Shown here piece by piece: positions 8,230 to 63,874 of a stretch of 64,000 bases of DNA. The DNA is from an archaeon (GTDB lineage: Archaea; Iainarchaeota; Iainarchaeia; Iainarchaeales; JAAZKV01), in contig JBAZFU010000002.1 of the NCBI GenBank assembly GCA_041653195.1, forward strand, positions 23,639-87,638, in the 5' to 3' direction. The position numbers and the translations under genes were made by a program. Position 1 is the stretch's first letter. Every line of letters starts with the position of its first letter. The notes beneath the pieces were generated by a model, which saw nothing but the letters and a program-made list of their open reading frames with translations, did no database searches and was not told the DNA's origin.

Positions 8230-8365
8230 AGCTGTCACGTCAGCTGGCAACGTGCCGGCTTGCGCTCTGCTTAGCCGGCTTGCCTCGCTTTGCTCGGCAA
8301 ATCTTAACAAAATTTAGCAAAAAGAGATTTTAAAAGGTTGTTTCTTTGAAAAATCGGGCAGAACT

Positions 8366-14509: not shown

Positions 14510-14581
14510 GCCAATAATAACTGCTTTTCAATATTTAATATTTAGCTCGGACAAAAAAAGCAGAAACGCGCGAAAAAACAC

Positions 14582-15262
14582 TTATTCTATTTCAACAGAG
14601 TAATCGAAAAACTGGGAAATTTTTGAAACAATATAATTACTTCCGAAAAAATAATACGCGTTCACGGAATTTTTTCGCAAAATTTTGGTAATTGAATGAA
14701 TGAACTTGAAAATATTTTCGTCGGAATGGAAAAGCCGAAGAATATCAAGAGAATCGAAAACAAACACTGCTTTGGAATAGGCTTCCACAAGCTCGATAAT
14801 TTTGATTTCAAGCCCCGGCAAATCCGCCAGGGAATCGGCGAAAAAAATATTCTCCTTATCTTTTTCACAAAAAATATTTTTAGTAACGCAGTCAACCAAA
14901 ACAACTTTTTTTGTTTCAATGCCCGCGTTTTCAAGTTCCTGAATCATCACCCTGTAGTTGCGCGCAGTGAGAACCATTACTGGAATTTTTCCGGAAGAAA
15001 TAATTTTTTTTGCAGTAACAATCAGCGTGTCACCCAAAAGTTCCGGACGAGTCTTTATAACCGCCTGAAAACGCGAAGCTTTCCCCGGAAGCTGCTTGTC
15101 AATTTCAAGCGAAATTTTGGACTGGCCCGAAAGCTCGCTCTGAAGCTTTTCAAACTGTTTAAGTTGGGCATCAATTTCCACCGAAATGTTTTTCTGATCA
15201 GATAAAAGCTTCTGAAGCTTTTCAAACTGTTTCGGACCGGCGGAATAATCAACTTCAGGCAT
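14582..15262 (-). CDS. KaiC/RecA-fold-like protein lacking a P-loop, with N-terminal 24-aa tandem repeat
   Basis: Walker-B-like hydrophobic strand ending in Asp (KAVFVFDSLDIL), but I find no GxxxxGK[ST]. The layout parallels 29305..29907. The exact 22-nt repeat tctgaagcttttcaaactgttt occurs at 15139-15160 and 15211-15232 (72-nt period), encoding KQFEKLQ twice. Confidence 0.45.
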   Translation of the reverse strand: MPEVDYSAGPKQFEKLQKLLSDQKNISVEIDAQLKQFEKLQSELSGQSKISLEIDKQLPGKASRFQAVIKTRPELLGDTLIVTAKKIISSGKIPVMVLTARNYRVMIQELENAGIETKKVVLVDCVTKNIFCEKDKENIFFADSLADLPGLEIKIIELVEAYSKAVFVFDSLDILRLFHSDENIFKFIHSITKILRKNSVNAYYFFGSNYIVSKISQFFDYSVEIE

Positions 15263-15391
15263 AGCCGAATAAGACAGAAAAATGTTTTAAAACAACCGCG
15301 AAGCGGCACCCCTTAAATTTATTAAATAGAAAGAACTAATTATAGCGAATGCGAATCCGACAAACAACTAGGAGCATAATTTAAAAAAACC

Positions 15392-17806
15392 GTGATTAAA
15401 ATGGCTTTATTCCCTGAAAAAAAAAGCGCAAATTCAAGCTCTCTTGACGAACTAAAAAAACTCGCGATGGGAGAAAAAGTCCCATCAAATCTCAAACCGG
15501 TTTCTCCAAAAGAAAATGAAAATCCTTCAGTTGAAAAAACAGCCGGGCCAAGCGCACTCGACAAACTAAAAAAATTTGCAAACCCAGGAAACGATGCGCC
15601 TGAAGAACCCCAAAAATTAATCGAATCAAAAAAATCCGATAATTACAACATAAGCACAAAAACTGATTCGTTTCTCGGCATGGAAGGAAGAAAGGGGCTC
15701 ATCTCACAAGAACCTGAGGACATAAGCTGGCTAAAAGAAAAAAAAGCCGAACAAAATGCCGCTGAAAATATTTCAGAAAGCGACCCTGAATGGATAATAA
15801 AAAGCGACCCGATAGAAGCGCCCCTGGCAACCGACTTTGAAGGATGGGAAGAACAGGCTGAAAACTCCGCGAAAGAAGCTGAAACAATTGAAGAACAAAA
15901 AAATACGGACTCTGCGGACAAACTTTTAAGAAACAAAACTTTCGGCGGTTCCGCAAAAATTGTTTCGGAAAGCGAAGAAAAAAAAACCGAAGAAGAGGCA
16001 AATCTTGACCTCACCGGAGAGAATCCAAGCAACGAAAAAGAACTCCGAGAAAAAATAGAAAAAATAACTACTCCCATTGACACCATGTTCGAATTGCTTA
16101 CCGCATACAAAGAGGTTGATGCTGGAAACCTCGTTGATTATATAGGATTGTCACTCGACAAAATAGAAGAAATTGCGAGGCTATTTGAAAACGACGGAAT
16201 AATAGAAATCAGTTACCCTCCGGGAATACAAAAAAAACCCAGAATAAAATTAAAAAAAGAAATAAATTCAAGACTAAAAGAACTTCCAAAAGGAAAATTA
16301 GTCGAATCTTACGACCTTGTAGTAGATTACATCCCCGCAAAAATTTCAATAATAGCGGAGCCGGGAGAAGTCAGACCAAAATACTGCCTCGAACTGCCCG
16401 CAATCGGAAAATACACAAAACAATTCCTTGAATACGTGAAAGGAGAAGTCGCCGAAAGCACGCCGATAGAACTGGAAGACATACTTGACCAGGCGAAAGC
16501 AAAAGATTTGAAGAAAAAATACTTCACGCAAGTAAATAAGCATCTACTAAAATATTTTCCAAACACTCCCGAAGAAATGCTGCGCCCGCTTGGGGGAGTT
16601 GTGCTTCATGAAATGTACGGACTCGGCGACCTCGATATTCTAATGGGAGATCCGATGCTTGAAGAATTGGCAATCAACTCTTCAAAGACCCCTGTAACAA
16701 TTTACCACATAGTGCACGGCTGGCTAAAAACAAATATTCAAATACAATCCGAAGAAGAAGTCGTGAATTATTCCGCGCAAATCGGAAGAAAAATCGGAAG
16801 AGAAATAAGCATACTAAACCCAATACTTGATGCGCACCTTACCTCGGGAGACCGTGTAAACGCAACACTCTTCCCCGTTTCAGCAGAAGGAAACACCCTC
16901 ACAATAAGAAGATTTGCGAGAAGACCGTGGACAATGGTTGATTTCATCGGGAAAAGCCATTCGATGAACACGGAGATGGCGGCATTGCTGTGGCTCGCAA
17001 TACAATACGAAATGAACGTGCTGGTGGCGGGAGGAACCGCAAGCGGAAAAACTTCCACGCTAAACGGACTGCTCGCACTAACCCCCGCTTATCACAGATT
17101 AATTTCAATTGAAGATGTAAGAGAACTAATACTTCCGAGTTATTTGAAATGGAACTGGGTTCCGCTTGTGACAAGACCACAGAACCCAGAAGGACTTGGA
17201 GAAGTAAAAATGCTCGACCTAATGGTAACAAGTTTGAGAATGCGACCGGATCGAATAATCGTCGGAGAAATAAGAAGGCATGAAGAGGCGGAAGTGCTCA
17301 TGGAAGCAATCGAAACCGGCCACAGCATTTACTCCACAATGCACGCAAACTCGGCATACCAGGTGCTAAGAAGATTAGCCGAACCGCCGGTAAGTATTCC
17401 GGCAGTACAAATAGAACTCATAGATTTGATACTTGTACAATACAGGGACAGAAAAACAAACAAGAGAAGAACCTACGAGATAGCGGAAATAGAACCTGCT
17501 GCAACCGGAGAAGGACTGCAGGTAAACACGATTTACAAATGGATTCCGAGAATGGACGAATGGGAACAACTAAACAAACCGGTAAAACTTTTAACACTGC
17601 TAAATCTTCACACCGGAATGACAGAAGGCGAAATTTACGAAGAACTTGAAAACAGAAAAATAATTCTCGAATGGATGAGGAATAACAAAATTGATTCAGT
17701 TGAATCAATAGGAAAAGTAATGAAATTATTTTATTCGGACCCTGAAAGGGTTAAAAAACTGGCGAAAAAAAACGCGACCATAGAAGAAGCATACAAAGTC
17801 GAATAA
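15392..17806 (+). CDS. Type IV filament assembly ATPase (ArlI/FlaI/PilB, T2SS-E family) with ~270-aa acidic N-terminal extension
   Basis: Walker A VLVAGGTASGKTSTLNGLL, Walker B/Asp box RPDRIIVGEIRRHEEAEVL and His box ETGHSIYSTMHANSA. The N-terminal third is Glu/Lys/Ser-rich low complexity, followed by a wHTH-like segment (LVDYIGLSLDKIEEIARLFENDGIIEISYP). GTG at 15392, first ATG at 15401. Confidence 0.9.
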   Translation: MIKMALFPEKKSANSSSLDELKKLAMGEKVPSNLKPVSPKENENPSVEKTAGPSALDKLKKFANPGNDAPEEPQKLIESKKSDNYNISTKTDSFLGMEGRKGLISQEPEDISWLKEKKAEQNAAENISESDPEWIIKSDPIEAPLATDFEGWEEQAENSAKEAETIEEQKNTDSADKLLRNKTFGGSAKIVSESEEKKTEEEANLDLTGENPSNEKELREKIEKITTPIDTMFELLTAYKEVDAGNLVDYIGLSLDKIEEIARLFENDGIIEISYPPGIQKKPRIKLKKEINSRLKELPKGKLVESYDLVVDYIPAKISIIAEPGEVRPKYCLELPAIGKYTKQFLEYVKGEVAESTPIELEDILDQAKAKDLKKKYFTQVNKHLLKYFPNTPEEMLRPLGGVVLHEMYGLGDLDILMGDPMLEELAINSSKTPVTIYHIVHGWLKTNIQIQSEEEVVNYSAQIGRKIGREISILNPILDAHLTSGDRVNATLFPVSAEGNTLTIRRFARRPWTMVDFIGKSHSMNTEMAALLWLAIQYEMNVLVAGGTASGKTSTLNGLLALTPAYHRLISIEDVRELILPSYLKWNWVPLVTRPQNPEGLGEVKMLDLMVTSLRMRPDRIIVGEIRRHEEAEVLMEAIETGHSIYSTMHANSAYQVLRRLAEPPVSIPAVQIELIDLILVQYRDRKTNKRRTYEIAEIEPAATGEGLQVNTIYKWIPRMDEWEQLNKPVKLLTLLNLHTGMTEGEIYEELENRKIILEWMRNNKIDSVESIGKVMKLFYSDPERVKKLAKKNATIEEAYKVE

Positions 17807-17850
17807 AAAAATAATCGAAACTTAATTGAAAAAACTGAAGGTGAAAAAAA

Positions 17851-18744
17851 ATGGAAACTAAGATACCAATGATGCTTTTTTCACCGGAAAAAATAAATTC
17901 ATTCAAAAGCAATTATCTTTGGGTCGGAAACCTGCTATCAAAATTAATTTTTTCTTTGAAATACGATTTGGAAAAAGCAGAAATCGGGATAGATATTGAA
18001 AGATATAGTCTTGCCGCATTCCTATCCGCAATATTTTACGCAGTAGTTTTTTTCTTCGTCGGATCGGCATTCGGATTAATACTAAGCAAACAATTCGGGC
18101 CAACGGTTTATTCAACAATGACAATATTCGGAATATTCGGATTCGCAGGATTCTTCCTTTACTTTATGCTGTACCCAAAAATGAGGGCAACACAACTAGC
18201 GAGCGCAATCGACAGCGAATTGGTTTTCGCGATAAGAAGCATGCTCATTCAGTTAAGTTCGGGAGTAAGTTTGTTTGAAACGGTAAAAAGCATTTCACGG
18301 GCAAATTACGGAGTAGTTTCAAACGAATTCAAATACGTTGTTTCGGACATAAGCTCGGGCCAAAGAGAAACCGAAGCGTTGGAAAGACTCGCATTCAAAA
18401 CACAATCAGAGGTTTTGAGGAGGACTGTTTGGCAATTAATAACAACAATAAAAAGCGGCGGCTCACTCGTATCATCACTAGGCGTTCAGGTCGACTCGCT
18501 AATAGCAAGCCAAATGGAATCAATAAAAAATTACGCCGCGGAACTGAATCTCTGGATACTACTGTATCTCATAGTGGCCGCAGCACTTCCCTCACTCGGA
18601 GTGGCTTTTCTAGTAGTAATTTCCTCGCTTAGCGGCGGAGGAGTCGGAAAAGAAATAATAATTTCAATAGTACTGCTTTCGGTTTCAGTACAAATAGGAA
18701 TGATAATGTTTGTTAGGACAAGAACTCCTAAAATAGTGAGATAA
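17851..18744 (+). CDS. Type IV filament platform protein, T2SS-F domain (TadB/ArlJ N-half-like)
   Basis: 297 aa, polytopic. ELVFAIRSMLIQLSSGVSLFETVKSISRANYGVVSNEFKYVVSDISSGQRETEALERLA fits the T2SS-F domain pattern. Confidence 0.8.
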   Translation: METKIPMMLFSPEKINSFKSNYLWVGNLLSKLIFSLKYDLEKAEIGIDIERYSLAAFLSAIFYAVVFFFVGSAFGLILSKQFGPTVYSTMTIFGIFGFAGFFLYFMLYPKMRATQLASAIDSELVFAIRSMLIQLSSGVSLFETVKSISRANYGVVSNEFKYVVSDISSGQRETEALERLAFKTQSEVLRRTVWQLITTIKSGGSLVSSLGVQVDSLIASQMESIKNYAAELNLWILLYLIVAAALPSLGVAFLVVISSLSGGGVGKEIIISIVLLSVSVQIGMIMFVRTRTPKIVR

Positions 18745-18765
18745 AAAAATAAAAACGGTGAAAAA

Positions 18766-19809
18766 ATGATTAGAGACCCTGCATTGATATTTTCCTCGTT
18801 CATTCCGAAAAGTTTTCTTGAAAACTATGTAAAAAAATGGCTTAATTATGCGGGCTCGAAAGCCGATGCGAGAGAATGGGCCGGCGCGAGACTAATACTT
18901 TCCATATTACTCGGATTAATAGGATTTCTTCTGCCAAGCACAATACTCCCTGCCATAGATGTGTTGTACAACTCACACTTCGCGTTCGCAACCCCTAACC
19001 TCTTAATACAAATCGGGCTATTCTTCGTATTTTTCGCAGCAGTTTGGATCGCTTCAATACTTCACATAGCCTACACCATCGACGGACGAAAAAAAATGGT
19101 TGAAGCAGTGCTCCCCGATTTCCTTTTGCTGGTTTCAAGCAATTTGAAAAGCGGAATGACGCCCTTCTCCGCGTTTAGAGCCGCGGTAAGACCAGAGTTT
19201 GGACCGCTCAGCGAAGAAATAAAATTTGCGACACAAAAAAGCCTCGGAATAGAATCATTTTCAAAAGCGCTTCAACACATCGCAGACAGAATCGATTCAA
19301 ACGTGCTGAGAGAAACCTCAAAATTCTTTGCACAGGCGCTCGTTTCCGGCGGCCACCTATCAGAATTAATTGAGTCAAGTGCAAAAGACATCAAGCAAAC
19401 CGAAAGACTGAAAAAAGAACTGGTTTCATCCACAAGAATGTACATAATATTCATTATTTTTGTCGTCCTAATAGCTTCGCCCATGCTTCTCGCAGTAAGC
19501 GTCCAATTCCTCAACATCATGTCCTCAATACAAACACAAAACGGAGGACTGTCACAGGTGAGCGGAGCCGCTGCGGCACAAATAGGATTTGCGGGCGGCG
19601 GTGTAACAATTGAGCCCGATTTCATGAAAACTATCGCCTTCGCACTTCTCATATGCGACTCCATACTCGCAAGCATGTTCATCGGAATAGTCGGCGGAGA
19701 CAAAATAATAACCGGACTTAAATACTCGCCACTGCTTCTCATCGGAAGTATAGGCGTGTTCCTGGTAATGGTCAACATAATCGGTTCTGTGCTAGGCGCA
19801 TTTGTTTAA
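18766..19809 (+). CDS. Type IV filament platform protein, T2SS-F domain (TadC/ArlJ C-half-like)
   Basis: 347 aa, polytopic. LPDFLLLVSSNLKSGMTPFSAFRAAVRPEFGPLSEEIKFATQKSLGIESFSKALQHIA fits the T2SS-F domain pattern. Confidence 0.8.
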   Translation: MIRDPALIFSSFIPKSFLENYVKKWLNYAGSKADAREWAGARLILSILLGLIGFLLPSTILPAIDVLYNSHFAFATPNLLIQIGLFFVFFAAVWIASILHIAYTIDGRKKMVEAVLPDFLLLVSSNLKSGMTPFSAFRAAVRPEFGPLSEEIKFATQKSLGIESFSKALQHIADRIDSNVLRETSKFFAQALVSGGHLSELIESSAKDIKQTERLKKELVSSTRMYIIFIIFVVLIASPMLLAVSVQFLNIMSSIQTQNGGLSQVSGAAAAQIGFAGGGVTIEPDFMKTIAFALLICDSILASMFIGIVGGDKIITGLKYSPLLLIGSIGVFLVMVNIIGSVLGAFV

Positions 19810-19928
19810 TACACAAAAATAAGCAAAAAACTTTGAAAAAACCAACTTACAAAGCTTTAAATATTAGAAAAAGATATACTTAGCAATAAAGTGTTGCTTT
19901 ACAAAGTGAACTTTTAAAATTAGTTAAA

Positions 19929-20417: not shown

Positions 20418-20477
20418 AAAAACTAAACTATTTTGCTAATTAATTCTGCCGAAGTTTCAAAAACAAGTCTGATTCCA

Positions 20478-21335
20478 TTAGCCGGAAATTTTTATTAAAC
20501 TGTTTGAATCAAATCCGTTTCCGGAATAAGCCAAAATAGAATCAAAAAAAATTGGAAGATTATTTGGATAAGAAGACGGGGAATAGGAAGCGAAAATCGA
20601 ATAATTAAAACTGCGAAGCGAATTCGCATTAATATCTACTGAAGAATTAACTCCTCCGATTTGCCCAACAATAATGTACGCGTTTTCATCTCCCTGATAA
20701 ACTATTGCAAGTTTGTTAAGAACACTTGAATTAACCGAAGTTGAAACGGAAAAAGAATTCACATCATCCGTATAATTTATTCTAACAGGAATTGTTCCTG
20801 AAGGGCCAGAAACGGGATTCACCCACTCAAATCGGTTAAGGTCCGAAGCAGAGGCATCAATATTAATATCCAAAGAATTTAGCGACGCCCCGTTCTTCGG
20901 ATAAATTATCGCACTACTATTCGAATAATCAAAGTCATAACTCAAAATGCTTCCCACTGAAAGTTCGGCCTTACCATCTGCCAGCGAAGAAAGGTCTATT
21001 GACTTTACCCCCGAAGTTCTTTCAAAAAAAGTCCGATAAAGGAAAGAATTGTAATCCACAATAGCGGTAGAAACGCCAAAGCCGCGCGGAACCACGCCCG
21101 AAACAAGCAAATTCAAATCCGAATTATAATCCGTCCTAATTGCAAACCCTAAAATTTTTTGCAAATCCGTTCCGATATCGTCGTTCAAAAAAGGCTGATT
21201 GATGAGCTTTGAAGAAAAAATTATTCCCTGCTCGCGAAAAGAATTATTATTCACATATTGCTGCGAATAAAAAACAAGGGTTGAAACAAAAAGAATTACA
21301 GAAATTGTAAACAAATAACCGCGCGAAGACATCAC
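20478..21335 (-). CDS. Pilin-like protein (minor-pilin candidate, no +5 Glu)
   Basis: N-terminus MMSSRG|YLFTISVILFVSTLVFYSQ, followed by Asn/Ser-rich beta-type sequence. It is the last gene of the pilin operon and overlaps the upstream gene by 4 nt. Confidence 0.6.
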   Translation of the reverse strand: MMSSRGYLFTISVILFVSTLVFYSQQYVNNNSFREQGIIFSSKLINQPFLNDDIGTDLQKILGFAIRTDYNSDLNLLVSGVVPRGFGVSTAIVDYNSFLYRTFFERTSGVKSIDLSSLADGKAELSVGSILSYDFDYSNSSAIIYPKNGASLNSLDINIDASASDLNRFEWVNPVSGPSGTIPVRINYTDDVNSFSVSTSVNSSVLNKLAIVYQGDENAYIIVGQIGGVNSSVDINANSLRSFNYSIFASYSPSSYPNNLPIFFDSILAYSGNGFDSNSLIKISG

Positions 21336-21757
21336 TTAGTCCACCCCGAAACCCTTGCAATCAAAAAGTTTGCATCAGCACCATCAACCAGCACAAAAGA
21401 TCTTTCCACGACAACCAGGTTTGAAAAATTTTTTTGACAACCCGCTTTAAGCGCATGAACCAGCGGAACATCAAGATTTTCATCATTAAAAACAGCAACG
21501 TCAAAACAATACGCGAAAGGAGAATTATTAAGCGAAGAAAGAATCAAATCGGATGAGCGCTGCTTAACCGAATTTTCAAGAGCGCCGGATTTTTCAAGAA
21601 CAATCGCTTCATCCATTGAGAGCTGCTTAAGGTCAACAGAATTCCAAGCCGCTACAGAAATTTGTGAAAGATAAAAAAAAGCCATCAAAATCAAAAGCAT
21701 TGAAAGCGTAAGACTCAGGAATGCATCAAGCGAAATCAAAAAGCCGTCACTTCGCAT
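21332..21757 (-). CDS. Pilin-like protein (minor-pilin candidate)
   Basis: N-terminus MRSDG|FLISLDAFLSLTLSMLLILMAFFYLSQ (Gly junction, Asp at +6). It overlaps both neighbouring genes (11 nt and 4 nt). Confidence 0.6.
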   Translation of the reverse strand: MRSDGFLISLDAFLSLTLSMLLILMAFFYLSQISVAAWNSVDLKQLSMDEAIVLEKSGALENSVKQRSSDLILSSLNNSPFAYCFDVAVFNDENLDVPLVHALKAGCQKNFSNLVVVERSFVLVDGADANFLIARVSGWTK

Positions 21758-22295
21758 AAGAAAACACGCCCCTCAAAACAGATTGCCTGCCACCGTAATA
21801 CACCACGCGTTCATAAATCAAAGTATAATCCGCATTTTCATTAATAAAACCGGCTTCGTTAAAATAATCTCCGTTCGAATCAACCATGCTTAACTGAAAA
21901 TCATACCTTGCAATTCCAAGCTTTTCCTTTGCCAAAGAATAATCGGGACCATTCAAATATCCCGCCAACTTTTCAAACTTTCGCGAATCAACAACCCCCT
22001 TAGAAGAAACAATCCCAAAAATATTTACATCAGTTATGCTTCCGTATTCCCAATTCGAAGGTTCGCCCGATGAACCGAGCAAAACACTCATTACAGGATG
22101 CGCAAACTCTTCCACATTTTTTTTAACATCCAAATCGGCAGTTTGAAAAAAAATTTGCTGCGAAGCCGCGAAAAAAAATACCAACCCCATAATAAAAACG
22201 GCAGAAGCAAGCATCAAGTCCGGAAAAAAAAACTGGCCGCGCTCATTCGAAAAGAAACTCTTTGAAAAAAACTTTTTTCGCAAAAACTTTTTCAT
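21747..22295 (-). CDS. Pilin-like protein (minor-pilin candidate)
   Basis: N-terminus ...SNERG|QFFFPDLMLASAVFIMGLVFFFAAS: RG|Q junction, acidic residue at +6, hydrophobic helix. Confidence 0.6.
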   Translation of the reverse strand: MKKFLRKKFFSKSFFSNERGQFFFPDLMLASAVFIMGLVFFFAASQQIFFQTADLDVKKNVEEFAHPVMSVLLGSSGEPSNWEYGSITDVNIFGIVSSKGVVDSRKFEKLAGYLNGPDYSLAKEKLGIARYDFQLSMVDSNGDYFNEAGFINENADYTLIYERVVYYGGRQSVLRGVFSYAK

Positions 22296-22336
22296 AACAA
22301 TGCCTCAAAAAAATAAACAAAAAATTCAAAATATTA

Positions 22337-24430
22337 TCAGCCTGACTGATCCACCTTCCACATAAACATATCATAGCTTCCGGCAGAGGCAAGACTTGCC
22401 GCATCAAAAGCAACTGTTGACGAGAAGGTTCCGCAAATATAAGATTCGTTTTGCGAATCAATTGCTATCCCCATTCCAAAATCAAATCCTGCCCCCCCGG
22501 TGTTCTCGACACGAAGCCAGTTTCCATTAGGGTCAATGCTTGCAAGGAAAGCATCACGAACACTGCTTACTACAAAACTTGTTGTCCCAAAATAAGCCGT
22601 TCCAAGAACATACCCCGTCAAATACGCATTGCCATCTGTTCCAATCGCAATATCACTCGCACCCTCAAAATTAGAACCATTAACCGTATCGCTGCCCGCC
22701 TGCTTCGCCCACAACCAACTTCCGAGCGAATCAAGCTTCACGACAAATATTTCGCTGTTCCCAGAAACATTCAAATCAATGTTACCAAAAAAAGCGTCGC
22801 CGTCAAAACGACCCGCAACATAAACATTATGCGAAGAATCAGCAGCTACGCCATAACCATAAGTATGAACTTCCTGATCCGGTACGCCAGCATTCTTCGC
22901 CCACAACCAGTTCCCATCAGAACCAATTTTAGCAACAAACATATCAAAATAATTTCCAATAGCATTTCTATCAAGAACAGTGCTTCCAAATGTTGCAGTC
23001 GCACTTCTAAAATAACCGGTTACAAAAATGTTTCCATTAGATTCAACAAAAATATCTTTTCCATAATCATAGCTTGTACCGCCGGCTTTGTTAACCCAAA
23101 CCCAATTCCCGTCAGGATTAATTTTGCCGACAAAAATTTCATCCACTCCAGAAGTTGTCAAAGCAATCGCATCAAAAGAAATTGTTGTCCTGTAATAACC
23201 TGTAACATAAGCATTATCATCGGAACCAACAGTTATTCCATACCCTGAATCAATTGAAGTGCTTCCGACCATAACCGCCCAAAGCCAATTTCCATCAGTA
23301 TCAAGTTTTGCAACAAAAATATCCGGACCGGCGCTTATTGAATTCAAATTAAAATTTCCAAAAGAAGCGTTGCCCTGAAACTGTCCTGTAATGTAAACAT
23401 TCCCTTCAGAATCAACCGCAACACTTTGCCCAGCGTCATAATATGACGTAACTGCAGAATCGCTTCCTGCCCTCTTCGCCCACAACCAGTTCCCGTCCGG
23501 ACCGGCTTTTGCAACAACAATATCCGCATAACCGTTACACTCAAGCGAAATGCTTCCAAAATTTGCGTTACCCAAAATGTAACCCGTTACATAAGAATTG
23601 CCCGCAGAATCAACCGCAACGCCCGTTGAATAATCTGCGGCTGTGCCCCCCGCTTTGTTAGCGAAATAAACCGGAAGCGAATAAGTCAAAGTTCTCGGAG
23701 AACCGCTTGAACCCTCATTGCCGTACTCGTCCGTGCAATTAACATCCCACACATAGGTTCCGGCGGAAGTGAACGAATAATTCGCAAATTCAGCGAAAGG
23801 CGCGGAATCCGCAGAAACCTTCGAAACCGCGTTAATTATTAATTCACAACTTTCAATAGAAGAATCATCCGTAACAGTATAAGAAAAATCTACAACCCCG
23901 TCCGAATCGGTTGTACCGTTTTCCGGCAAACCAAGGTATATTACCGGCGGAGTCGTATCTTCTTCAGGCGGAACGGGCTCTTCCTCTTCCGGAACTTCTG
24001 AAGAATAATTTACAACAACTTTATCCCCGCTTTTTGTGAAAAAAATTTCGCCGTTCAAATCCCCGACAAAAAAATCAACATTCTTCGGAATTATCGGCGC
24101 GTCAACAAAACTATTCGCATTAAACCAAACAATCACACTGCCCGAACCGCTTTCAACATAGTAACCCTGCGCGGCGTAATAAAAAGAATCACTGAAAGAA
24201 ATATTTCCATCAGACAAATAAACCGCGTTTATATTGCGGGCGAGCCTGAAAGCGGTTTCCTGCGCCCCGCCTTGCGCAGCATAATCAGTGTTTATCTGCG
24301 ACCTGCTCTGAAAAATCATTAATCCGAAAAGAAAAACCAGCGAAATTATTACGGCAGACATTATGAACTCAATACTTATTTGCCCCGCACTTGAAAAAAA
24401 ATATTTTCGAAAAAATTTTTTCAACACCAT
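22337..24430 (-). CDS. Large pilin-like adhesin: class III signal peptide + pilin core + Ig-like segment + ~7-blade SBBP-type beta-propeller
   Basis: N-terminus ...FFSSAG|QISIEFIMSAVIISLVFLFGLMIF. The C-terminal two thirds contain ~7 repeats of the pattern DGNWLWAK.AG(G/S)....G..(V/I)A.D..GN.Y(V/I)TG.F......FG (for example PDGNWLWAKRAGSDS, TDGNWLWAVMVGSTS, PDGNWVWVNKAGGTS, SDGNWLWAKNAGVPD, SLGSWLWAKQAGSDT, PNGNWLRVENTGGAG). Confidence 0.8.
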   Translation of the reverse strand: MVLKKFFRKYFFSSAGQISIEFIMSAVIISLVFLFGLMIFQSRSQINTDYAAQGGAQETAFRLARNINAVYLSDGNISFSDSFYYAAQGYYVESGSGSVIVWFNANSFVDAPIIPKNVDFFVGDLNGEIFFTKSGDKVVVNYSSEVPEEEEPVPPEEDTTPPVIYLGLPENGTTDSDGVVDFSYTVTDDSSIESCELIINAVSKVSADSAPFAEFANYSFTSAGTYVWDVNCTDEYGNEGSSGSPRTLTYSLPVYFANKAGGTAADYSTGVAVDSAGNSYVTGYILGNANFGSISLECNGYADIVVAKAGPDGNWLWAKRAGSDSAVTSYYDAGQSVAVDSEGNVYITGQFQGNASFGNFNLNSISAGPDIFVAKLDTDGNWLWAVMVGSTSIDSGYGITVGSDDNAYVTGYYRTTISFDAIALTTSGVDEIFVGKINPDGNWVWVNKAGGTSYDYGKDIFVESNGNIFVTGYFRSATATFGSTVLDRNAIGNYFDMFVAKIGSDGNWLWAKNAGVPDQEVHTYGYGVAADSSHNVYVAGRFDGDAFFGNIDLNVSGNSEIFVVKLDSLGSWLWAKQAGSDTVNGSNFEGASDIAIGTDGNAYLTGYVLGTAYFGTTSFVVSSVRDAFLASIDPNGNWLRVENTGGAGFDFGMGIAIDSQNESYICGTFSSTVAFDAASLASAGSYDMFMWKVDQSG

Positions 24431-25488
24431 CAGCTAACCACCATCGATAAATTAGCCCTCGCAGTAAAACCTGAAGAACTCACTACAAGAAACCCCGAAT
24501 ATGCGCCCGGTGGAATAGAAGGATTTATTCTCAATAAAAGCTCTTCACAGGAACCGGAAGCTATTACGCCGGAAAATGTGACTGCCGAATAAGCTGCTAT
24601 GTTTCCGGAAACAATTGAATCCGAAGAAGAAAAATTCGTTGAAGAATTATTGCACACCAAAAATGATTCGCCTGAAGAAGTCGATTCAATTAGTTTCACA
24701 CTGGGGGAAATTACAAGTTCCTGCCCGGAAGAAACGCAAACCAAATCAATTGGCAGGCTCGTGTTCTCATCGCCTGAAAAAATAAGTTCTCCGGAATAGG
24801 CGCCGCTCGCATTCGAATCACATGAAAGCGAAATAGTAAAATCTGCTGATTCATCAATATCAAAAATCTTTTCTCCCGAAGGCGAAACTATTGCCGACGC
24901 ATCAGGATGCAAAAACTCCGTCGAAATCACATAAGGCACTTGAGCGCCGGAAATATTCTCTGCAGAAATAACCACTTCTTTTGAGGAACTTGAGGAAACT
25001 ATTTCTGCAATCCTATGCTGGGACAAAGAAAGCTTTGACGGAGAAATTGAAACGAAACCATCATAAACAGTTATAACAAACTGGTGAAGCCCCGTGTCAT
25101 CCGGCCATGAACCCCTGACCTCGACATTTGTTGTCCCGATAATATCGGAACCCGCAACATTTAACACAATCGTTTTACCGATGAACTCCGATTTGTTAAA
25201 GTCATAAGATTCCGGCAATTGCAAAATAAGTTTTTTTACAGTACCGGGACCGAGAAAATACGCATCATCAATTTCCCGCGAAAGAGATTCAATAAGATTT
25301 TTTCCTGATTGCTGCTGCAACAAAATTTGCGAACCCGAATAGGAATCCCAAATAAGAGCTGTAAAAATAAGCAAACCTGCCATTGCAGCCGCCAGAATCA
25401 TCATTGATTCAATGGAAGCCTGCGCACCCGAACCGCGACAACGCTTATTTCCCAAAAAATTTTTTCTGCAAACCAAAAAACACACCAA
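24430..25488 (-). CDS. Pilin-like protein: class III signal peptide + pilin core + beta-sandwich repeats
   Basis: N-terminus ...CRGSGA|QASIESMMILAAAMAGLLIFTALIW. The pilin core is alignable with those of the 697- and 1211-aa proteins (..IGKTIVLNVAGSDIIGTTNVEVRGSW versus ISGRTVLLKLAGGDALGTADVNILGSW). It shares a one-nucleotide overlap with the downstream gene. Confidence 0.75.
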   Translation of the reverse strand: MVCFLVCRKNFLGNKRCRGSGAQASIESMMILAAAMAGLLIFTALIWDSYSGSQILLQQQSGKNLIESLSREIDDAYFLGPGTVKKLILQLPESYDFNKSEFIGKTIVLNVAGSDIIGTTNVEVRGSWPDDTGLHQFVITVYDGFVSISPSKLSLSQHRIAEIVSSSSSKEVVISAENISGAQVPYVISTEFLHPDASAIVSPSGEKIFDIDESADFTISLSCDSNASGAYSGELIFSGDENTSLPIDLVCVSSGQELVISPSVKLIESTSSGESFLVCNNSSTNFSSSDSIVSGNIAAYSAVTFSGVIASGSCEELLLRINPSIPPGAYSGFLVVSSSGFTARANLSMVVS

Positions 25489-25563
25489 ATCAAGAAAACG
25501 ACAACCAAAATATAAGGGTTTTCCGGTTTAAAATTGTTTTCAGAAGAAAAACTGCAAAAAAAA

Positions 25564-28500
25564 TTAAGAAGAAACGACCGAAACATTAACATCTTTTAGA
25601 AACGCCCCTATCCAAAAAGTGCCCGCAGTATAACCTTCAAAAGTCGATAGCGGTCTGAAAAAAACGTCAAAGCCAAGATAGCGGGAATTACTTAATGAAC
25701 TAATATCAATACTCGAATTATTTTCTGCACCCGAAATATACTGATTACTTGTCTTCGTGCTACAAGCAGAATCGCTGCAGGAATAAACATTCAAATCCAA
25801 GCGAGAAGCGCCTTGACGGTACAAATCCATAACCTGCCGCTGATTCATGGCATAATTTGCCGCAAACATATTCTCAATTTTTCCGTCAAATTTCGCAGTA
25901 CCATTCTGCCCATAAAGCGTACGCTCTTCAGTCCTCTTGCCGATATAAGTTCCAATGCCCACATCATAATATATCAAGCCCGTGCCAACTGCACCTGTCC
26001 CGACAAGAAGCCCGTTAGAATAAATATTCACAGTCCCCTGATTCCTCACAACAACCACCTGTGTCCACTTATTTACATCAACAGCACCGGGCGCAGATGT
26101 CTTAACCACATTATCCATTATTCCTCCCGCGCCGAAAGTAATTATTCCTGCCGGAGTAATCCAAATCGCATAACCACCGTCCGTGCCCGCAATTTCATAT
26201 TTGTTATCAATAAGGCCATGCTCGCGCGCAGAAGTCGGATAAACCCACGCGCCAATCGTCAAATCTTTTCTAAAATTTATTCCCTGATTTAATTCAACAT
26301 GATCCCTGTTTTCAGCATCAAAACTATACGCTTGCGTACCCCATAGCCCGGTTGTTAACATAGCACCGCCCGCGCTACCATCATTGCCACCAACAGCACT
26401 ATCTTCCGCGTCTCCGTTGAAATGCCAAACAGAAACCAAATCCGGTTCATTTCCAACCAATTCTGCACCCTCACCAAAATTGTATCTTTCAGAAACTTCC
26501 GCCGCCGACAAAGCTTTGCCCCAAACCGCAACCTCTTCCAAAACACCGTTAAAATCCGCCTGTCCCCCTTGAGAGTAATCGGCACGCGCAGTCTTCCTGT
26601 GCCCGATGAATCTTCCTGAATCAAGCAATCTGGCCACAGTATCATAGTATAGAGTTCCCGCGCCAACAACTGCACTTGAATTTAAAACTCCGTTCACATA
26701 AAAATTAACATCCTTGCCGCCCCGCACAACCGCAATGTGAGACCACTCATTCAAATTAAAAGAATTCGAAGGAGAAGAAACAACCACATTGCTTAATATT
26801 CCGCCCGCGCCGAAAGTAATATTATTATCTGCAGAAAGCCAAACCGCGTAACCCCCGTCAGTTCCTTCTATCTCATAATAATTATCAAAAATTGAGTGTG
26901 TCCTCGCACTAATCGGATAAATCCAAGCCTCAATCGTCAGGTTATTTACATCAAGAGTATTGTTTACAGGAGCACTTAATTCCAAATATGAATTTATATC
27001 AGCACCAGCGTTAAAACTCGCGGCATTGGTGCTCCACAAACCAGTTTCATACGTTGTTGTACCAACCCAACTGCAATCATTGACTCCGTTCAAACTTGAA
27101 TCATTAACATCATTATTCATGCGCCAAAGAGCCACAGGATTCCCGCCCCAAGCAGCACTATCCCGCTTCAATTCATCCCCAAAATTGTAATCAAAATCTT
27201 TATTGATTTTTATCGCATTCCAATCAACATCCGCACCGGCATCAATAATATTTTCACTCACAAAATTTGAATTGACCCACTGATTATAATCTGCCAACAC
27301 TTCGGACGCGGACAATGCACGATCCCAAATTTTCACTTCATCAATATCCCCGCTAAAAAAATAAAGATTTCCCGCTGTCCACAATTGCTTACCCATGGTA
27401 AGCGGCTGGGCAGACTGGTCAAAACTGTTCACGACACCGGCATTCGTATCTGCAACATCACTCCTAACCCCGTTCACATAAATTGCCATTCCCGAACTCT
27501 TGAAAGTTCCATCCCACACCGCAACAACATGATTCCACTTTCCGGCGCTAATCGGGTTTACAGCAGTTTTTCTTGAAATATATACGCTTGTGGAACTGTC
27601 AAATAAATAAAATTGCAAAGTAGTGTCCGTAAAAAATCTGAAAAAAAATCCGTCTCTGTTAGCGGTTGTTGCGTTATTGCCGTCAAGGTTCGAAATTATT
27701 ACATCGCCCGTTGTTAGAGAATCCATGTTTACCCAAGCGCTTACTGTGAAACCGCCCGCCATGTTGTCATCAATAGTATTATTCAACTGAACAAAATCAG
27801 CTGTCCCGTTGAAACTATAAGAATTCGCGTCCCACAAACCCTGCGCAACAATTGGACTACTTACTGCTCCGCTGTTGCCCCTGCCGGAAAAATCAAAAGC
27901 ATCGCCATTAAACTTGTAATATGCAACAAGATTCGCATCACGCCATCTGTTTGAATCAGCAACTGAATTCAAATTCCAGTCCAACTCGCCCGTAGTGGCA
28001 ATCGATTTATCCGCAAACTTCTGAACCCAATTGGCAAAGTCATAATCCTGATTCAAATCAGAGAGATAAAAAGTAAGAGGCGTTTCCGAAACTGGCGGCT
28101 CGCTCTCACTAACCTCAATCGAAATCGATGCGGCCCCTGAATTTTTATCAGAATAAAGCGCAATAAAATTAGCGTCGTAGGTGCCTGCAGAAACTTCCGA
28201 CGGAACAGTCACCGAAACACTCACATCTAAACATTCAAAAGGACCAATGTTACTTATCGCAGTAAGCGAAAGCCAGGGCGCGGCATTCGCATCCGCACTG
28301 CCATCAACAGCCCAAGAAATTCCGCTTATCTCCGAACCATTATTGCTGCACAAAGCATACTGCGAAGAAACCGCGCTTCCGCCCGATTCCGCCGAAACGC
28401 TTTTTGCAGGCGGAAGAAGCGACAAAGAACTTGAGCTGGAAAAAATCTCTGCGGAAACAAAAACTTGTTTTGAAAAATTTTGGTCGGAAATTTCGCCAAC

Positions 28501-29199
28501 CACATCAACGATTCCTGAATAGTTTCCGAAAGCACTCTGTTCAATATCAAAATTCATCGAAACTTCTTTCATTCCTTGCGCAGGAACCGAAAAAAAGTCG
28601 TCGCCAGCATCAAGAGAAAGAGCAACCCCTGAACGATAAAAATTCGGAATGACCCAAAAAGTCGCTTCAGAATCAGAATTATTTCTCACAACAAATTTTT
28701 TTGAAATCGTGCGCCCTGCAGGAGAAGAAAAATAAATCGATTCGCTACTAATTTCAAAATCCCTGTAACTCAGCCGAACTGCATTCCCGTCATAATACAA
28801 GTAAGCATAATAAACATAGGAACCCTGCTTCCACGAACCCAAAATATTAACATCCGCAGTACCGAGCGCGTCACCGCCCGCAAGTTTCAACAAAACCGTG
28901 CGCCCGCTTATATTGCTATCAAGAAGATTTGCAGAAACAGGCACCTCTATCAAAATTTTTGTTTCCGAACCGATGCCCGAAGAATAAACCTCGTTGGCAG
29001 CATTCACAATTCTTTGAACAGTAGAATTTGCAGTATACACGTCCCTGAAATTTGTTGCCGAATTTATTTGAGAAGCATAAAAAACATAAATAAGCACAAT
29101 AACAATTGCGGCCGCACTCAAAACCATTGACAACTCGATAACCGCCTGCGCCCTATTCTCGTTCAACAAAGCCAAAAACCCGCCATTCAACGAATACAT
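25564..29199 (-). CDS. Giant pilin-like adhesin: class III signal peptide + pilin core + beta-sandwich repeats + three LamG/concanavalin-like lectin modules
   Basis: N-terminus ...LLNENRA|QAVIELSMVLSAAAIVIVLIYVFYASQ. There are three modules with the LamG_3-type pattern (L(V/A).(Y/W).(F/M)NGDA.D.S..GN.G...GLW...A..F......(V/L).L....TI.AW(V/I)...W.H(V/I)(A/V)VV......(I/F)YVNG...(L/I)(D/E)EV.(I/V)W..ALSA.EV). Modules 2 and 3 are close internal duplicates. Confidence 0.8.
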   Translation of the reverse strand: MYSLNGGFLALLNENRAQAVIELSMVLSAAAIVIVLIYVFYASQINSATNFRDVYTANSTVQRIVNAANEVYSSGIGSETKILIEVPVSANLLDSNISGRTVLLKLAGGDALGTADVNILGSWKQGSYVYYAYLYYDGNAVRLSYRDFEISSESIYFSSPAGRTISKKFVVRNNSDSEATFWVIPNFYRSGVALSLDAGDDFFSVPAQGMKEVSMNFDIEQSAFGNYSGIVDVVGEISDQNFSKQVFVSAEIFSSSSSLSLLPPAKSVSAESGGSAVSSQYALCSNNGSEISGISWAVDGSADANAAPWLSLTAISNIGPFECLDVSVSVTVPSEVSAGTYDANFIALYSDKNSGAASISIEVSESEPPVSETPLTFYLSDLNQDYDFANWVQKFADKSIATTGELDWNLNSVADSNRWRDANLVAYYKFNGDAFDFSGRGNSGAVSSPIVAQGLWDANSYSFNGTADFVQLNNTIDDNMAGGFTVSAWVNMDSLTTGDVIISNLDGNNATTANRDGFFFRFFTDTTLQFYLFDSSTSVYISRKTAVNPISAGKWNHVVAVWDGTFKSSGMAIYVNGVRSDVADTNAGVVNSFDQSAQPLTMGKQLWTAGNLYFFSGDIDEVKIWDRALSASEVLADYNQWVNSNFVSENIIDAGADVDWNAIKINKDFDYNFGDELKRDSAAWGGNPVALWRMNNDVNDSSLNGVNDCSWVGTTTYETGLWSTNAASFNAGADINSYLELSAPVNNTLDVNNLTIEAWIYPISARTHSIFDNYYEIEGTDGGYAVWLSADNNITFGAGGILSNVVVSSPSNSFNLNEWSHIAVVRGGKDVNFYVNGVLNSSAVVGAGTLYYDTVARLLDSGRFIGHRKTARADYSQGGQADFNGVLEEVAVWGKALSAAEVSERYNFGEGAELVGNEPDLVSVWHFNGDAEDSAVGGNDGSAGGAMLTTGLWGTQAYSFDAENRDHVELNQGINFRKDLTIGAWVYPTSAREHGLIDNKYEIAGTDGGYAIWITPAGIITFGAGGIMDNVVKTSAPGAVDVNKWTQVVVVRNQGTVNIYSNGLLVGTGAVGTGLIYYDVGIGTYIGKRTEERTLYGQNGTAKFDGKIENMFAANYAMNQRQVMDLYRQGASRLDLNVYSCSDSACSTKTSNQYISGAENNSSIDISSLSNSRYLGFDVFFRPLSTFEGYTAGTFWIGAFLKDVNVSVVSS

Positions 29200-29304
29200 A
29201 AAAGACGAACTAGTAATTAAAATTAATCAATTGAGTTTTTCTTCAAAAAAATGCTTTGAAAACCCGCGAAAAAGGTTTTTATTAACAAAACACGTTCCTT
29301 CTGA

Positions 29305-29907
29305 ATGCAAAATCTCGCTTTCCTAAAACCAATGCTGGCAGAAGCCGAGGAAAGAACAGCACTGGTAGAATTAAACAAAGACCAGTTAAAAGACGCCATG
29401 AAAACAATAGTAACACATTATGAAAAGAACCGAAGAAAAAAAGGAATAATAATTTCACTAAGCGCACCGATAGAACAAATTACCGAAGAAGACGATTTTT
29501 CAATGCTCGACAAGGAACAACTCATACTAATCGACATGTGCTCCGGAAAAAAAGGAAAAGCAACTGTAAACGGATTCAAAACATTCTTTATAGAAACGCC
29601 ATCAGACTTGACAAGTTTGAGAATAATACTCGAAAATCTCCTGCAAAAAAACGAAAACGAAAAAAATGAAAAAAAATTTGTTTTATTCGACTCTATAAGC
29701 GCGCTTTCAACATACGTCGAAAGAAAGGTTCTCGACAAGTTCATGTATTACTTAAACAACAAAATAAGTTTCGAAGGCGATACCGGAATATTTCTTTCAA
29801 TAAAAAATCCGAAAGTAGACGAAGATATTGAAATAATAAAACAATTCTGCTCCAAATTTTACGACTTTTCGGGCGTTGTTACAATGGAAGTAGAAAAAGC
29901 CGAATAA
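29305..29907 (+). CDS. KaiC/RecA-fold-like protein lacking a P-loop (paralogue of 14582..15262)
   Basis: 200 aa. The Walker-B-like strand KKFVLFDSISALSTYV and the overall strand/helix order resemble the core of the neighbouring KaiC-like ATPase. I find no GxxxxGK[ST] motif. Confidence 0.45.
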   Translation: MQNLAFLKPMLAEAEERTALVELNKDQLKDAMKTIVTHYEKNRRKKGIIISLSAPIEQITEEDDFSMLDKEQLILIDMCSGKKGKATVNGFKTFFIETPSDLTSLRIILENLLQKNENEKNEKKFVLFDSISALSTYVERKVLDKFMYYLNNKISFEGDTGIFLSIKNPKVDEDIEIIKQFCSKFYDFSGVVTMEVEKAE

Positions 29908-29920
29908 AACATTCACAAAT

Positions 29921-31012
29921 CTAAAAAATCTCTACGTCAGGATAAACCCTTATCCCGTTCTTCTCAAAATTTATTGCGCAAATCTTGTTAGTGTGGCGGG
30001 TTCCGCGCATTTTTAACACCTCAAGTGCATGAATCCTAATTCCCTTTTCCTCATCATGTTTATAGTAAAGAGAAATTATCGCATCAACAATAAAACCTAT
30101 GCCTCCTTCCTCGCCCTCAAGCTTTTCCGGCGACTCTTCCGAAATTATTAGGGAAGTAACATCCCACTTTTTCAAAGAATTAAAAAACTCAAGAGTTTTG
30201 TCGCGCTTCTCGTATTCGTCCTTAAACAGCAAACCGTAAACCGTTATCGAATCAACAACAACACGCTTCGCTCCGAGCTCGACAAGCGCGTCTCTTATGC
30301 CCGCACCACCCTCTTCCAAAATTTTTGTCATTTGATGCGGCTTGAAAAGCAAAAGGCGAAACTTTCCTTCCTTTTCGAGTTTCGCAAAATCCCACCCGAA
30401 TTGAAGCGCATGAGTGTAAAGCGACTCCCTGTCCTCGCTGAAAGAAATAAACATTCCGGGCTCATCATATTTCATTATCCCTTCATAAATAAACTGCAGA
30501 CCGAACAAAGTTTTTCCAGTGCCTGCCGAGCCGACAACAACCACTGTAGAATTTTTTTCAAATCCTCCTTCAATCAACTCGTCAAAACCGGTAATGCCCG
30601 TTCTTACCCTCTCAAAAGTTTCATGCCCCTCTTCATTTTTTCGCTCTCCGCTAAAAGAAGGTTTTTCCGAATCAAAATTATCCAATCTCACAGGGCGAAC
30701 AGAAAAATTTTCACGTTTCTTCGAATCAACATTCAAAGCACTATCAAAATTTCCGCTTTCTTTAATACTTTCAAACATTTTTATCTTATCATCAAAGCTC
30801 CCACTACTCGAATACGCGGATTTTGGGCTTTCTTTGAAAGAAACCTTCGATTTTTTTAGTTCCTGAATAGCATTATCAAGCGATCCCTTTGATGCTTCCA
30901 TTCTCGAAGTTCGAATATCAGTCCCTGTTCCCCTTAATTGCGCCATCTTTTCCTCAAGGAGCCTTTCCGCTTCGGACTTTTCTTCGTTCTCTTCATCAGC
31001 CATAAAAACCAT
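29921..31012 (-). CDS. KaiC/RadA-like ATPase (ArlH/FlaH-like) with ~130-aa disordered N-terminal extension
   Basis: RVRTGITGFDELIEGGFEKNSTVVVVGSAGTGKTLFGLQFIYEG (Walker A), KRVVVDSITVYG (Walker B) and ALEVLKMRGTRH, the typical KaiC-family single-domain pattern. Confidence 0.85.
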   Translation of the reverse strand: MVFMADEENEEKSEAERLLEEKMAQLRGTGTDIRTSRMEASKGSLDNAIQELKKSKVSFKESPKSAYSSSGSFDDKIKMFESIKESGNFDSALNVDSKKRENFSVRPVRLDNFDSEKPSFSGERKNEEGHETFERVRTGITGFDELIEGGFEKNSTVVVVGSAGTGKTLFGLQFIYEGIMKYDEPGMFISFSEDRESLYTHALQFGWDFAKLEKEGKFRLLLFKPHQMTKILEEGGAGIRDALVELGAKRVVVDSITVYGLLFKDEYEKRDKTLEFFNSLKKWDVTSLIISEESPEKLEGEEGGIGFIVDAIISLYYKHDEEKGIRIHALEVLKMRGTRHTNKICAINFEKNGIRVYPDVEIF

Positions 31013-63873: not shown

Positions 63874-63874
63874 T

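Follow-up and report, generated by a model that had tools for sequence, protein, structure and literature searches.

We describe a type IV pilus locus in a 64 kb stretch of an Iainarchaeales genome (contig JBAZFU010000002.1), which was analysed at its full length and is called the window below. Thirteen neighbouring genes encode a secretion ATPase, two platform proteins, seven pilin-like proteins and three KaiC-like proteins. The locus probably specifies a non-archaellar DPANN type IV pilus whose minor pilins would display adhesin modules. The machine itself is no new kind, but a member of a pilus class that is already recognised and widespread in DPANN archaea and Euryarchaeota. New in this study is a predicted ordered set of five minor-pilin families, termed A to E, together with giant domains that are carried by some of these pilins as add-ons.

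An earlier note, made from the DNA sequence alone, had called this region a type IV filament locus. This assignment is retained, as ATPase, platform and pilin-type N-termini are all present at the sequence level. The note had further stated that the gene combination matches no named filament, which we cannot follow. A genome scan with the ATPase yielded 80 related loci (43-89% identity) from Iainarchaeota, Micrarchaeota, Aenigmatarchaeota, Nanohaloarchaeota, Woesearchaeota, Nanoarchaeota and Altiarchaeota. The best ATPase match, from a Candidatus Diapherotrites/Iainarchaeum metagenome-assembled genome (MAG), is 77% identical. Open reading frames (ORFs) of the related loci were predicted with a simple custom caller and then matched to the proteins of the window. 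In 72 loci, enough downstream sequence was available for counting gene orders, and 53 of these carry two separate T2SSF genes directly after the ATPase gene. The same core thus recurs in most of these DPANN loci, and ATPase and platform fall into a described class with the same gene order. For the core machinery, this is the outcome that the note itself had named as a refutation of its reading. The small pilin family is found in 43 of the related loci, family C in 36, family D in 39 and family E in 45, while kaiC occurs in 20 and its P-loop-less relative in 12. A protein of at least 500 amino acids (aa) with a class III-like N-terminus is encoded in 27 related loci.

The three large proteins of the minus strand, named p1211, p697 and p352 after their lengths, are predicted modular pilins, which join a pilin module to one or more separately recognisable domains. 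p1211 consists of a pilin module, an immunoglobulin-like (Ig-like) region and three Laminin_G_3 (LamG) domains (1.5e-65). All four of its full-length homologs start with [KR][GA]Q-x-x-V-E, behind which lie about 20 hydrophobic residues. In p697, the pilin module precedes an Ig-like repeat-type domain and a beta-propeller with four SBBP stretches (1e-22). Over its whole length, p352 matches residues 1-346 of a LamG protein of 2092 aa (E = 1e-48); a shorter alignment joins residues 22-129 of p352 to the beginning of p1211 (E = 2e-10). The AlphaFold2 (AF2) model of p352 exhibits a helix spanning residues 21-78, a beta head and two Ig-like sandwiches, with a predicted local distance difference test score (pLDDT) of 72. 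The helix comprises 58 residues and starts within one residue of the predicted cleavage site, which would leave Q22 as the mature N-terminus. The earlier claim that the large LamG and SBBP proteins carry pilin-type N-termini is kept, and the proteins fit the modular-pilin pattern.

The N-terminal modules of p697, p352 and p1211 are homologous to stand-alone pilin-like proteins of 130-160 aa, which are encoded at the same operon position in other genomes. The clearest example comes from the closest relative, the Iainarchaeota locus L003, where the operon has, in the place of the p697 gene, one for a stand-alone protein of 143 aa that matches residues 14-142 of p697 (E = 2e-53). The same module of p697 also matches pilins of 132 aa (L006) and 151 aa (L005). 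Since just 60 bp lie between the bare B pilin gene of L003 and the next gene, the propeller is truly absent from this locus. Likewise, L003 has no 1211-aa LamG gene at the corresponding position, and an unrelated 432-aa P-loop protein is encoded upstream. From the comparison with L003 we conclude that the adhesin cargo varies between genomes whose ATPases are 77-89% identical. Across the related loci, family A bears large extensions in Iainarchaeota, Micrarchaeota and some Woesearchaeota (513-763 aa); in Woese-, Nano- and Aenigmatarchaeota (644-1352 aa), they are borne by family D. As judged from these alignments, the giant LamG and SBBP parts are lineage-specific, recent and movable C-terminal add-ons.

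Two observations on these proteins are added here. The operon of L003 (positions 14040-17183, Iainarchaeum MAG JAPLVR01) is the same as that of the window and encodes a 143-aa B pilin and a 270-aa A pilin. The C-terminus of p1211 (window positions 25564-25900) and its homologs P0122-P0125 have a segment of about 90 aa in common, LDLNVYSCSD..C...QYIS...YLG.D..F, in which two cysteines are conserved. This segment has no counterpart among known families and could serve as a capping or interaction domain.

All seven proteins for which a prepilin-like N-terminus had been claimed indeed have such a site, [KR]-x-[GA] with a stretch of about 20 hydrophobic residues behind it, and this motif is conserved within the families. 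Of the 287 window ORFs with 50 aa or more, just these seven are matched by hidden Markov models (HMMs) of the pilin families, which were built from the related loci. The N-terminal motifs are conserved in every family although overall identity amounts to just 15-30%. A common pattern, G/A↓Q...E(+5), where the arrow marks the predicted cleavage, unites the 162-, 352- and 697-aa proteins and the LamG pilins. Position +5 holds a conserved glutamate in the candidate major pilin as well as in families A and B.

The 162-aa protein is the candidate major pilin. Its family has 81 matches in the related loci, with the motif [KR][GA]Q-x-x-x-E-[YF]-L, and frequently occurs in two to three tandem copies behind the second platform gene. 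The match of the 162-aa protein to Class_IIIsignal is weak (17.4 bits, cutoff 23.7). The remaining six pilin-like proteins are encoded in one minus-strand operon in the order A, A', B, C, D, E, and represent five families. Families A and B are paralogous according to iterated HMM searches. In most DPANN loci they are tandem genes of about 137 and 130 aa, located upstream of C, D and E. Family D has 42 members in the related loci with the motif KG↓F[IV]F[ST]LDA; DUF7288 is matched weakly by 2 out of 23 members. Family E, with 47 members and the N-terminus KKG↓[FLI]xF[ST], is always the last of the minor-pilin set, and a Pfam search gave no match for it.

Family C is characterised by the motif [KR][GA]↓Q-x-F-x-x-D, whose Q21 and D26 do not vary in any of 30 DPANN homologs. 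These homologs are 17-26% identical, apart from the nearest relative with 63%, and DUF7287 is matched by 12 of the 30. In a library of 1.84 billion proteins, the family is represented by 2,659 cluster representatives. The AF2 model of the window member p182, derived from a 28-sequence alignment, shows a helix at residues 23-74 and a four-strand sheet (pLDDT 76). The helix is 52 residues long and begins at residue 23, close to the predicted mature Q21.

The annotation of the family C gene at NCBI deserves mention. The annotated protein (P0162, WC308_01170, 147 aa) is 100% identical to p182 over 81% of the 182 aa and starts at an internal methionine, whereby the class III signal is lost. Such internal starts may be one reason for the lack of annotated pilins in DPANN genomes.

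The genes of the locus are listed in Table 1. ORF listing and translation reproduce the thirteen genes at the coordinates given for them before, and the Pfam search recovers the domains named at that time: a T2SSE ATPase, two single-domain T2SSF proteins, LamG, SBBP and KaiC. The minus-strand operon had been described as having overlapping stop and start codons. This is correct for three of its five junctions (-1, -11 and -4 nt), while at the remaining two the genes are spaced by +75 and +41 nt. The start codon of the ATPase gene is probably the ATG at 15401, and the 352-aa gene requires TTG or another non-ATG start for its signal to be kept. A 241-aa protein encoded next to the locus is included in the table as a possible accessory component. 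Its gene adjoins that of the 226-aa protein solely in the Iainarchaeota loci L001, L003 and L018. A horizontally acquired island was considered as well and is not indicated, as the GC content of the locus (0.39-0.44) equals the range of the remaining window.

Table 1. Genes of the pilus locus and a possible accessory gene, with positions in the window (the arrow marks the predicted cleavage site).
Product	Position	Strand	Evidence
Possible accessory surface protein, 241 aa, N-terminal transmembrane (TM) segment	13784..14509	-	weak CARDB-like match; module membership uncertain
P-loop-less KaiC-like protein 1, 226 aa, DUF7504	14582..15262	-	DUF7504 30.7 bits
PilB/VirB11-family secretion ATPase, 804 aa	15392..17806	+	T2SSE E 2e-31
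Platform protein 1, 297 aa	17851..18744	+	one T2SSF domain, E 5.8e-15
Platform protein 2, 347 aa	18766..19809	+	one T2SSF domain, E 2.7e-15
Candidate major pilin, 162 aa	19929..20417	+	predicted site KNA↓QGTIEYL
Minor pilin-like, family E, 285 aa	20478..21335	-	predicted site SRG↓YLFTIS
Minor pilin-like, family D, 141 aa, DUF7288-like	21332..21757	-	predicted site DG↓FLISLDA
Minor pilin-like, family C, 182 aa (p182), DUF7287-like	21747..22295	-	predicted site RG↓QFFFPD
Predicted modular minor pilin, family B, 697 aa (p697), SBBP	22337..24430	-	predicted site AG↓QISIEF
Predicted modular minor pilin, family A, 352 aa (p352), two Ig-like	24430..25488	-	predicted site GA↓QASIES
Predicted giant modular minor pilin, family A, 1211 aa (p1211), three LamG	25564..29199	-	predicted site RA↓QAVIEL
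P-loop-less KaiC-like protein 2, 200 aa	29305..29907	+	weak KaiC, DUF7504 and DUF7090 matches
Single-domain KaiC-like ATPase, 363 aa	29921..31012	-	KaiC Pfam E 1.4e-57

The motor ATPase was classified by comparison with PDB structures and NCBIfam models. Its motifs are readable in the translation: Walker A (GGTASGKT, at residue 547), Asp box (RLISIEDVRE), Walker B (RPDRIIVGEIR) and His box (GHSIYSTMHAN). The nearest solved structure is GspE of A. fulgidus (2OAP; 234 bits, 2e-68), followed by FlaI of S. acidocaldarius (170 bits, 7e-49) and CpaF (133 bits, 1e-37). Among the models, TadA (TIGR03819) scores 169 bits at a cutoff of 373, and BasE gives a partial match of 148.7 bits, far under its cutoff of 1000. 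The PilB3_C domain is matched weakly in some homologs of the ATPase. The two platform proteins are paralogs of each other. The note had set their separation into two genes against the fused ArlJ of archaea, yet it is not foreign to archaea: two platform genes define System 1 of the archaeal type IV filaments (TFF) and occur in many clade 2 systems.

The ATPase has an N-terminal extension of about 400 aa (window positions 15392-16600). Approximately residues 201-300, just N-terminal of the catalytic core, belong to the ATPase polypeptide both here and in Micrarchaeota. Some 40 related loci from Woese-, Aenigmat-, Nano- and Nanohaloarchaeota instead have this segment as the last 60 residues or so of a separate gene directly upstream, which encodes 220-380 aa (e.g., L068 8910-9920 and L022 9088-9861). 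It looks like a conserved cytoplasmic accessory component which is either fused or split, depending on the lineage.

One intact KaiC-like ATPase and two P-loop-less relatives had been proposed at the borders of the locus, in good agreement with our result that Walker A motifs occur solely in the motor ATPase and in the 363-aa protein. The latter carries GSAGTGKT at residue 161, scores 195 bits with Pfam KaiC and matches KaiC structures at up to 200 bits. It has a charged N-terminal extension of roughly 130 aa, and every KaiC-subfamily model of NCBIfam stays under its own cutoff. The 226-aa and 200-aa proteins lack a Walker A motif; the DUF7504 score of the former exceeds the cutoff of 27 bits. 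BLAST of one against the other gave no significant match. Both match one DPANN family of 185-200 aa, whose profile aligns with the KaiC profile in hhalign at 91.8% probability (E = 7e-7, 157 columns). In this family, the P-loop position is not conserved and a Walker-B-like FDS motif is kept. Based on the shared DPANN homologs and the hhalign result, we place the 226-aa and 200-aa proteins in a single KaiC-homologous family.

The assignment of the KaiC-like genes to the filament module is upheld by synteny in the related loci. The 226-aa gene adjoins the ATPase gene in the three Iainarchaeota loci mentioned above, and a relative of the 200-aa type is adjacent to kaiC in 12 related loci. In L018, the P-loop-less gene and kaiC come right after the pilin genes; from this gene order it follows that the KaiC genes are part of the motor module. 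Outside DPANN, a DUF7125 protein is encoded just upstream of a haloarchaeal pilus ATPase on a Salinibaculum plasmid (NZ_CP129994.1; locus L081, 7454-8131). It aligns with the N-terminus of KaiC and has VADPASVG in place of the GxxGxGKT P-loop. Pairing of pilus ATPases with KaiC-like proteins that lack a P-loop may hence be a wider archaeal theme.

By analogy with characterised systems, the machine could work as follows. The motor would be a hexameric PilB-type ATPase docked on a platform of two paralogous T2SSF proteins. The fibre would be built from the 162-aa candidate major pilin, which is encoded with the motor on the plus strand. Cleavage would occur behind the [GA] in front of Q, F or Y, by a prepilin peptidase whose gene presumably lies in another part of the genome. 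As in bacterial minor-pilin complexes, the minor pilins might come together first through their N-terminal helices, start polymerisation and finally occupy the tip of the pilus. There, the A-type pilins (Ig-like with or without three LamG domains) and the B-type pilins (Ig-like and SBBP) would offer glycan- or protein-binding modules to a surface or a cell. The KaiC-like ATPase and its two P-loop-less paralogs might modulate the motor or its expression. Binding of a host cell would be a plausible use of such a pilus. Pili-like appendages have been observed on ultrasmall episymbionts (PMC7906910).

The reading as an adhesin-bearing pilus has to be set against several findings which speak against it. 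No prepilin peptidase was found in the window by a Pfam search of the multi-pass membrane ORFs, and no Peptidase_A24 by tblastn and an HMM from four DPANN A24 peptidases; that the earlier reader saw no such gene thus holds for the whole 64 kb. What singles out the candidate major pilin is no more than its size, its motif, its location and the tandem copies present in relatives. Family E is devoid of an acidic residue near the cleavage site. A Foldseek search with the p182 model against solved pilins gave nothing significant (best E = 0.024). The p352 model was built on a 6-sequence alignment, and its Foldseek search, dominated by the Ig-like part, returned generic tandem Ig/PapD-like domains only. 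The window also encodes lysine biosynthesis genes, so that dependence on a host cannot be taken for granted.

Among the related loci, Peptidase_A24 genes are located less than 10 kb from the ATPase gene in Nanohaloarchaeota (L034 8176-9099, L050 7791-8669) and Nanoarchaeota (L068 1538-2467); a further one (L036 8166-9047) was assigned by sequence similarity. These peptidases have about 300 aa and an estimated 6-7 hydrophobic segments, and those of L068 and, more weakly, L034 show Arc_PepC-type C-terminal matches. The Nanohaloarchaeota peptidase loci also hold a second, divergent pair of ATPase and platform genes on the opposite strand.

Other explanations must be weighed against the pilus. The locus might produce a bindosome-like or pseudopilus display, i.e., a short envelope-spanning stub or a membrane extraction device that anchors the LamG, Ig and propeller proteins for the capture of glycans or substrates. 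This kind of display has been proposed for the Bas system of Sulfolobus and also for archaeal binding proteins that carry class III signals. Such binding proteins are reported to be widespread and to 'functionalise' TFF machineries (2026 TFF preprint). The partial BasE match of the ATPase points in the same direction, as does the fact that six of the seven pilin-like genes do not encode plain fibre subunits. However, a PilA-like small pilin, often in tandem, is conserved right after the platform genes, the exposed domains are lectin and propeller domains of the adhesin type and not solute-binding-protein folds, and pili-like filaments have been seen on cells of DPANN size. We regard the display device as an unlikely interpretation. 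Still less probable is a pilus for DNA uptake or nutrient scavenging, which would chiefly bring in DNA or other macromolecules, with the large proteins as incidental surface proteins. DNA import via homologous pili was proposed for Undinarchaeota and Nanohaloarchaeota (PMC7414124, PMC9563170), but these proposals are genome-based only. At the present locus, Pfam reveals no DNA-binding or nuclease domains, and the modules that vary (lectin, Ig and propeller) are of kinds typical of adhesins.

It is about as improbable, or slightly more so, that the large proteins are Sec-exported, stay outside the filament with an uncleaved TM anchor and are merely encoded beside it, such that only the small proteins are pilins. 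The missing peptidase in the window would fit this explanation, DPANN LamG proteins were assumed to be Sec-exported in published work (PMC9563170), and NCBI annotates the genes as hypothetical and trims the p182 signal. Against it, the motif [KR][GA]Q-x-x-x-E is common to the candidate major pilin and the large proteins and is kept in full-length homologs. Moreover, stand-alone pilin-like proteins encoded at the corresponding place of the operon are homologs of the first 130-150 residues of the large proteins, and the predicted p352 helix is, at 58 residues, far beyond the length of a TM anchor.

For the pilus with adhesin-bearing minor pilins, a more specific idea can be put forward tentatively. 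A five-family minor-pilin complex, conserved in a DPANN-wide pilus, might act as an exchangeable adhesin holder, with giant lectin, Ig or propeller modules on A, B or D depending on the lineage, and with gain and loss even between close relatives, so that the variable tip would be the main determinant of the host or surface. We consider this possible rather than likely. DPANN archaea are mostly uncultured, and for their recognition of partners and surfaces the locus and its 80 relatives provide a parts list, consisting of one putative major pilin and five ordered minor-pilin families. The idea of attachment by pili can thereby be phrased as predictions, namely cleavage at [GA]↓Q, localisation at the tip and glycan binding by LamG. 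In addition, the family C/DUF7287-like gene offers a sequence marker for locating and comparing such systems in metagenomes.

The remaining window contains archaeal genes such as those for the thermosome, the tRNA-splicing endonuclease and GatD/GatE. A lysine cluster of the diaminopimelate (DAP) pathway is located at 53576-57885 on the minus strand and encodes DapB, DapA, a class I/II aminotransferase and a pyridoxal phosphate enzyme of the DAP-decarboxylase type. The organism may thus be less host-dependent than typical DPANN archaea. A 242-aa protein (12128-12856, minus strand) has two internal repeats of about 100 aa (LPFP[RK]ATITN...MFKE...) and no Pfam match; its gene is syntenic upstream of the pilus locus in the Iainarchaeota loci L003 and L018. 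The Rfam scan of the window revealed no families besides tRNAs. Both tRNA-Ile(GAU) (8154-8230, minus strand) and a tRNA-Ile with a UAU anticodon (63801-63875, plus strand) are present. Archaeal genomes do not commonly encode an isoleucine tRNA with UAU; Nanoarchaeum and Korarchaeum are cases in which one has been noted.

Comparing the locus with known systems, we rejected the archaellum. The relevant models remain far below their cutoffs (FlaI 259 of 550 bits for the ATPase, ArlJ approximately 21 of 400, and ArlH 19.6 of 215 for the 363-aa KaiC), and the locus has no archaellin or accessory families, in accordance with the earlier note. The single-domain KaiC-family ATPase encoded with a PilB-type motor does resemble the pair of ArlH and ArlI. 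It is, however, not an ArlH ortholog and is accompanied by two P-loop-less paralogs, and neither archaellins nor ArlC/D/E/F/G/X are present. The bacterial Tad pilus was rejected, too. It has in common with the locus two single-domain T2SSF proteins, one ATPase and the absence of PilT, but the archaeal ATPases are matched better than CpaF, and a pilin of Flp size (50-60 aa), a secretin and TadZ/D/E/F/G are all absent.

More similarity exists to the two archaeal groups. System 1, the Epd-like group with two platform genes that corresponds to clade 1 of Makarova, includes DPANN among its hosts, and System 2 is described as having N-terminally extended ATPases and large adhesin-like proteins (Sivabalasarma and Albers 2026; 10.64898/2026.04.22.720090). 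In another classification, two tadC-like genes were found in clade 1 and many clade 2 systems, kaiC is tied to clade 2, and adhesins occur in pilus loci (Makarova et al. 2016; PMC4858521). With regard to a single or double platform gene in clade 2, the 2026 preprint, which gives one fused gene, and Makarova 2016 disagree. The locus agrees with the Epd system of Methanococcus maripaludis in the order of one ATPase and two platform genes, in the diversity of class III-signal pilins and adhesin-like proteins, and in the QxSxE-type (DUF361/Class_IIIsignal) pilin N-termini. It differs in its candidate major pilin, which has 162 aa, whereas that of Epd has about 70 aa and no globular head (arCOG06620). 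A 9-TM EppA-type peptidase was not seen, and the relatives carry FlaK/PibD-like A24 peptidases with Arc_PepC tails instead.

With System 2/clade 2, the euryarchaeal adhesion pili represented by PilB3-PilC3 of Haloferax with its PilA pilins and by GspE of A. fulgidus, the locus shares the nearest ATPase structure, the extended ATPase N-terminus, a PilA-like pilin of about 150 aa, the kaiC linkage, large adhesin-like proteins and the order of DUF7287 and DUF7288. A pilus locus on a Halobaculum plasmid encodes, in this order, the ATPase, a fused 680-aa platform, DUF7287, DUF7288, a DUF7261-like protein, DUF7266 and DUF7289; its succession of DUF7287 and DUF7288 corresponds to C and D here. HMMs of the DPANN families C, D and E found no match in the haloarchaeal plasmid loci, and the link is made solely via Pfam DUF7287/DUF7288. 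Unlike the two platform genes of our locus, the haloarchaeal comparison loci have one fused platform of about 690 aa, and ATPase identity is just about 31%.

The predicted modular pilins find their best counterpart in bacteria. In S. sanguinis, the modular pilins PilB (vWA) and PilC (ConA-like lectin) were modelled together with PilA as a tip-located complex (PMC8179133, PMC9934059), and the ConA-like lectin pilin binds glycans (Pelicic laboratory). Like these pilins and the GspK/HIJK tip complexes, the proteins described here have a class III signal, a small pilin module and a grafted adhesin, several minor pilins are encoded together, and the lectin is of the ConA/LamG type; the bacterial ones were proposed to be tip-located and to prime assembly. 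Sequence homology between both groups is not detectable, as the pilin modules of the locus are of archaeal type, and the cargo is far larger here (up to 1211 aa with three LamG domains).

The closest published cases are pilus clusters of DPANN archaea. Pilus islands with unannotated putative pilins were described (Makarova et al. 2019), and LamG proteins of Micrarchaeota were linked to pilus loci and a host interaction proposed (Golyshina et al. 2017; PMC5498576). Nanohaloarchaeota have TadA/TadB/TadC clusters with two kaiC copies (Xie et al. 2022; PMC9563170), and no pilins were annotated in Nanohaloarchaeota MAGs or Undinarchaeota (PMC9563170). The TadA/B/C clusters of Nanohaloarchaeota, Undinarchaeota and the Micrarchaeota representative Mia14, which may or may not include TadV and kaiC, share with our locus the core genes, the kaiC linkage and nearby LamG genes. 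Compared with these clusters, the present locus has its pilins sorted into five minor families and one candidate major family, and its LamG and SBBP proteins are, at the sequence level, pilin fusions.

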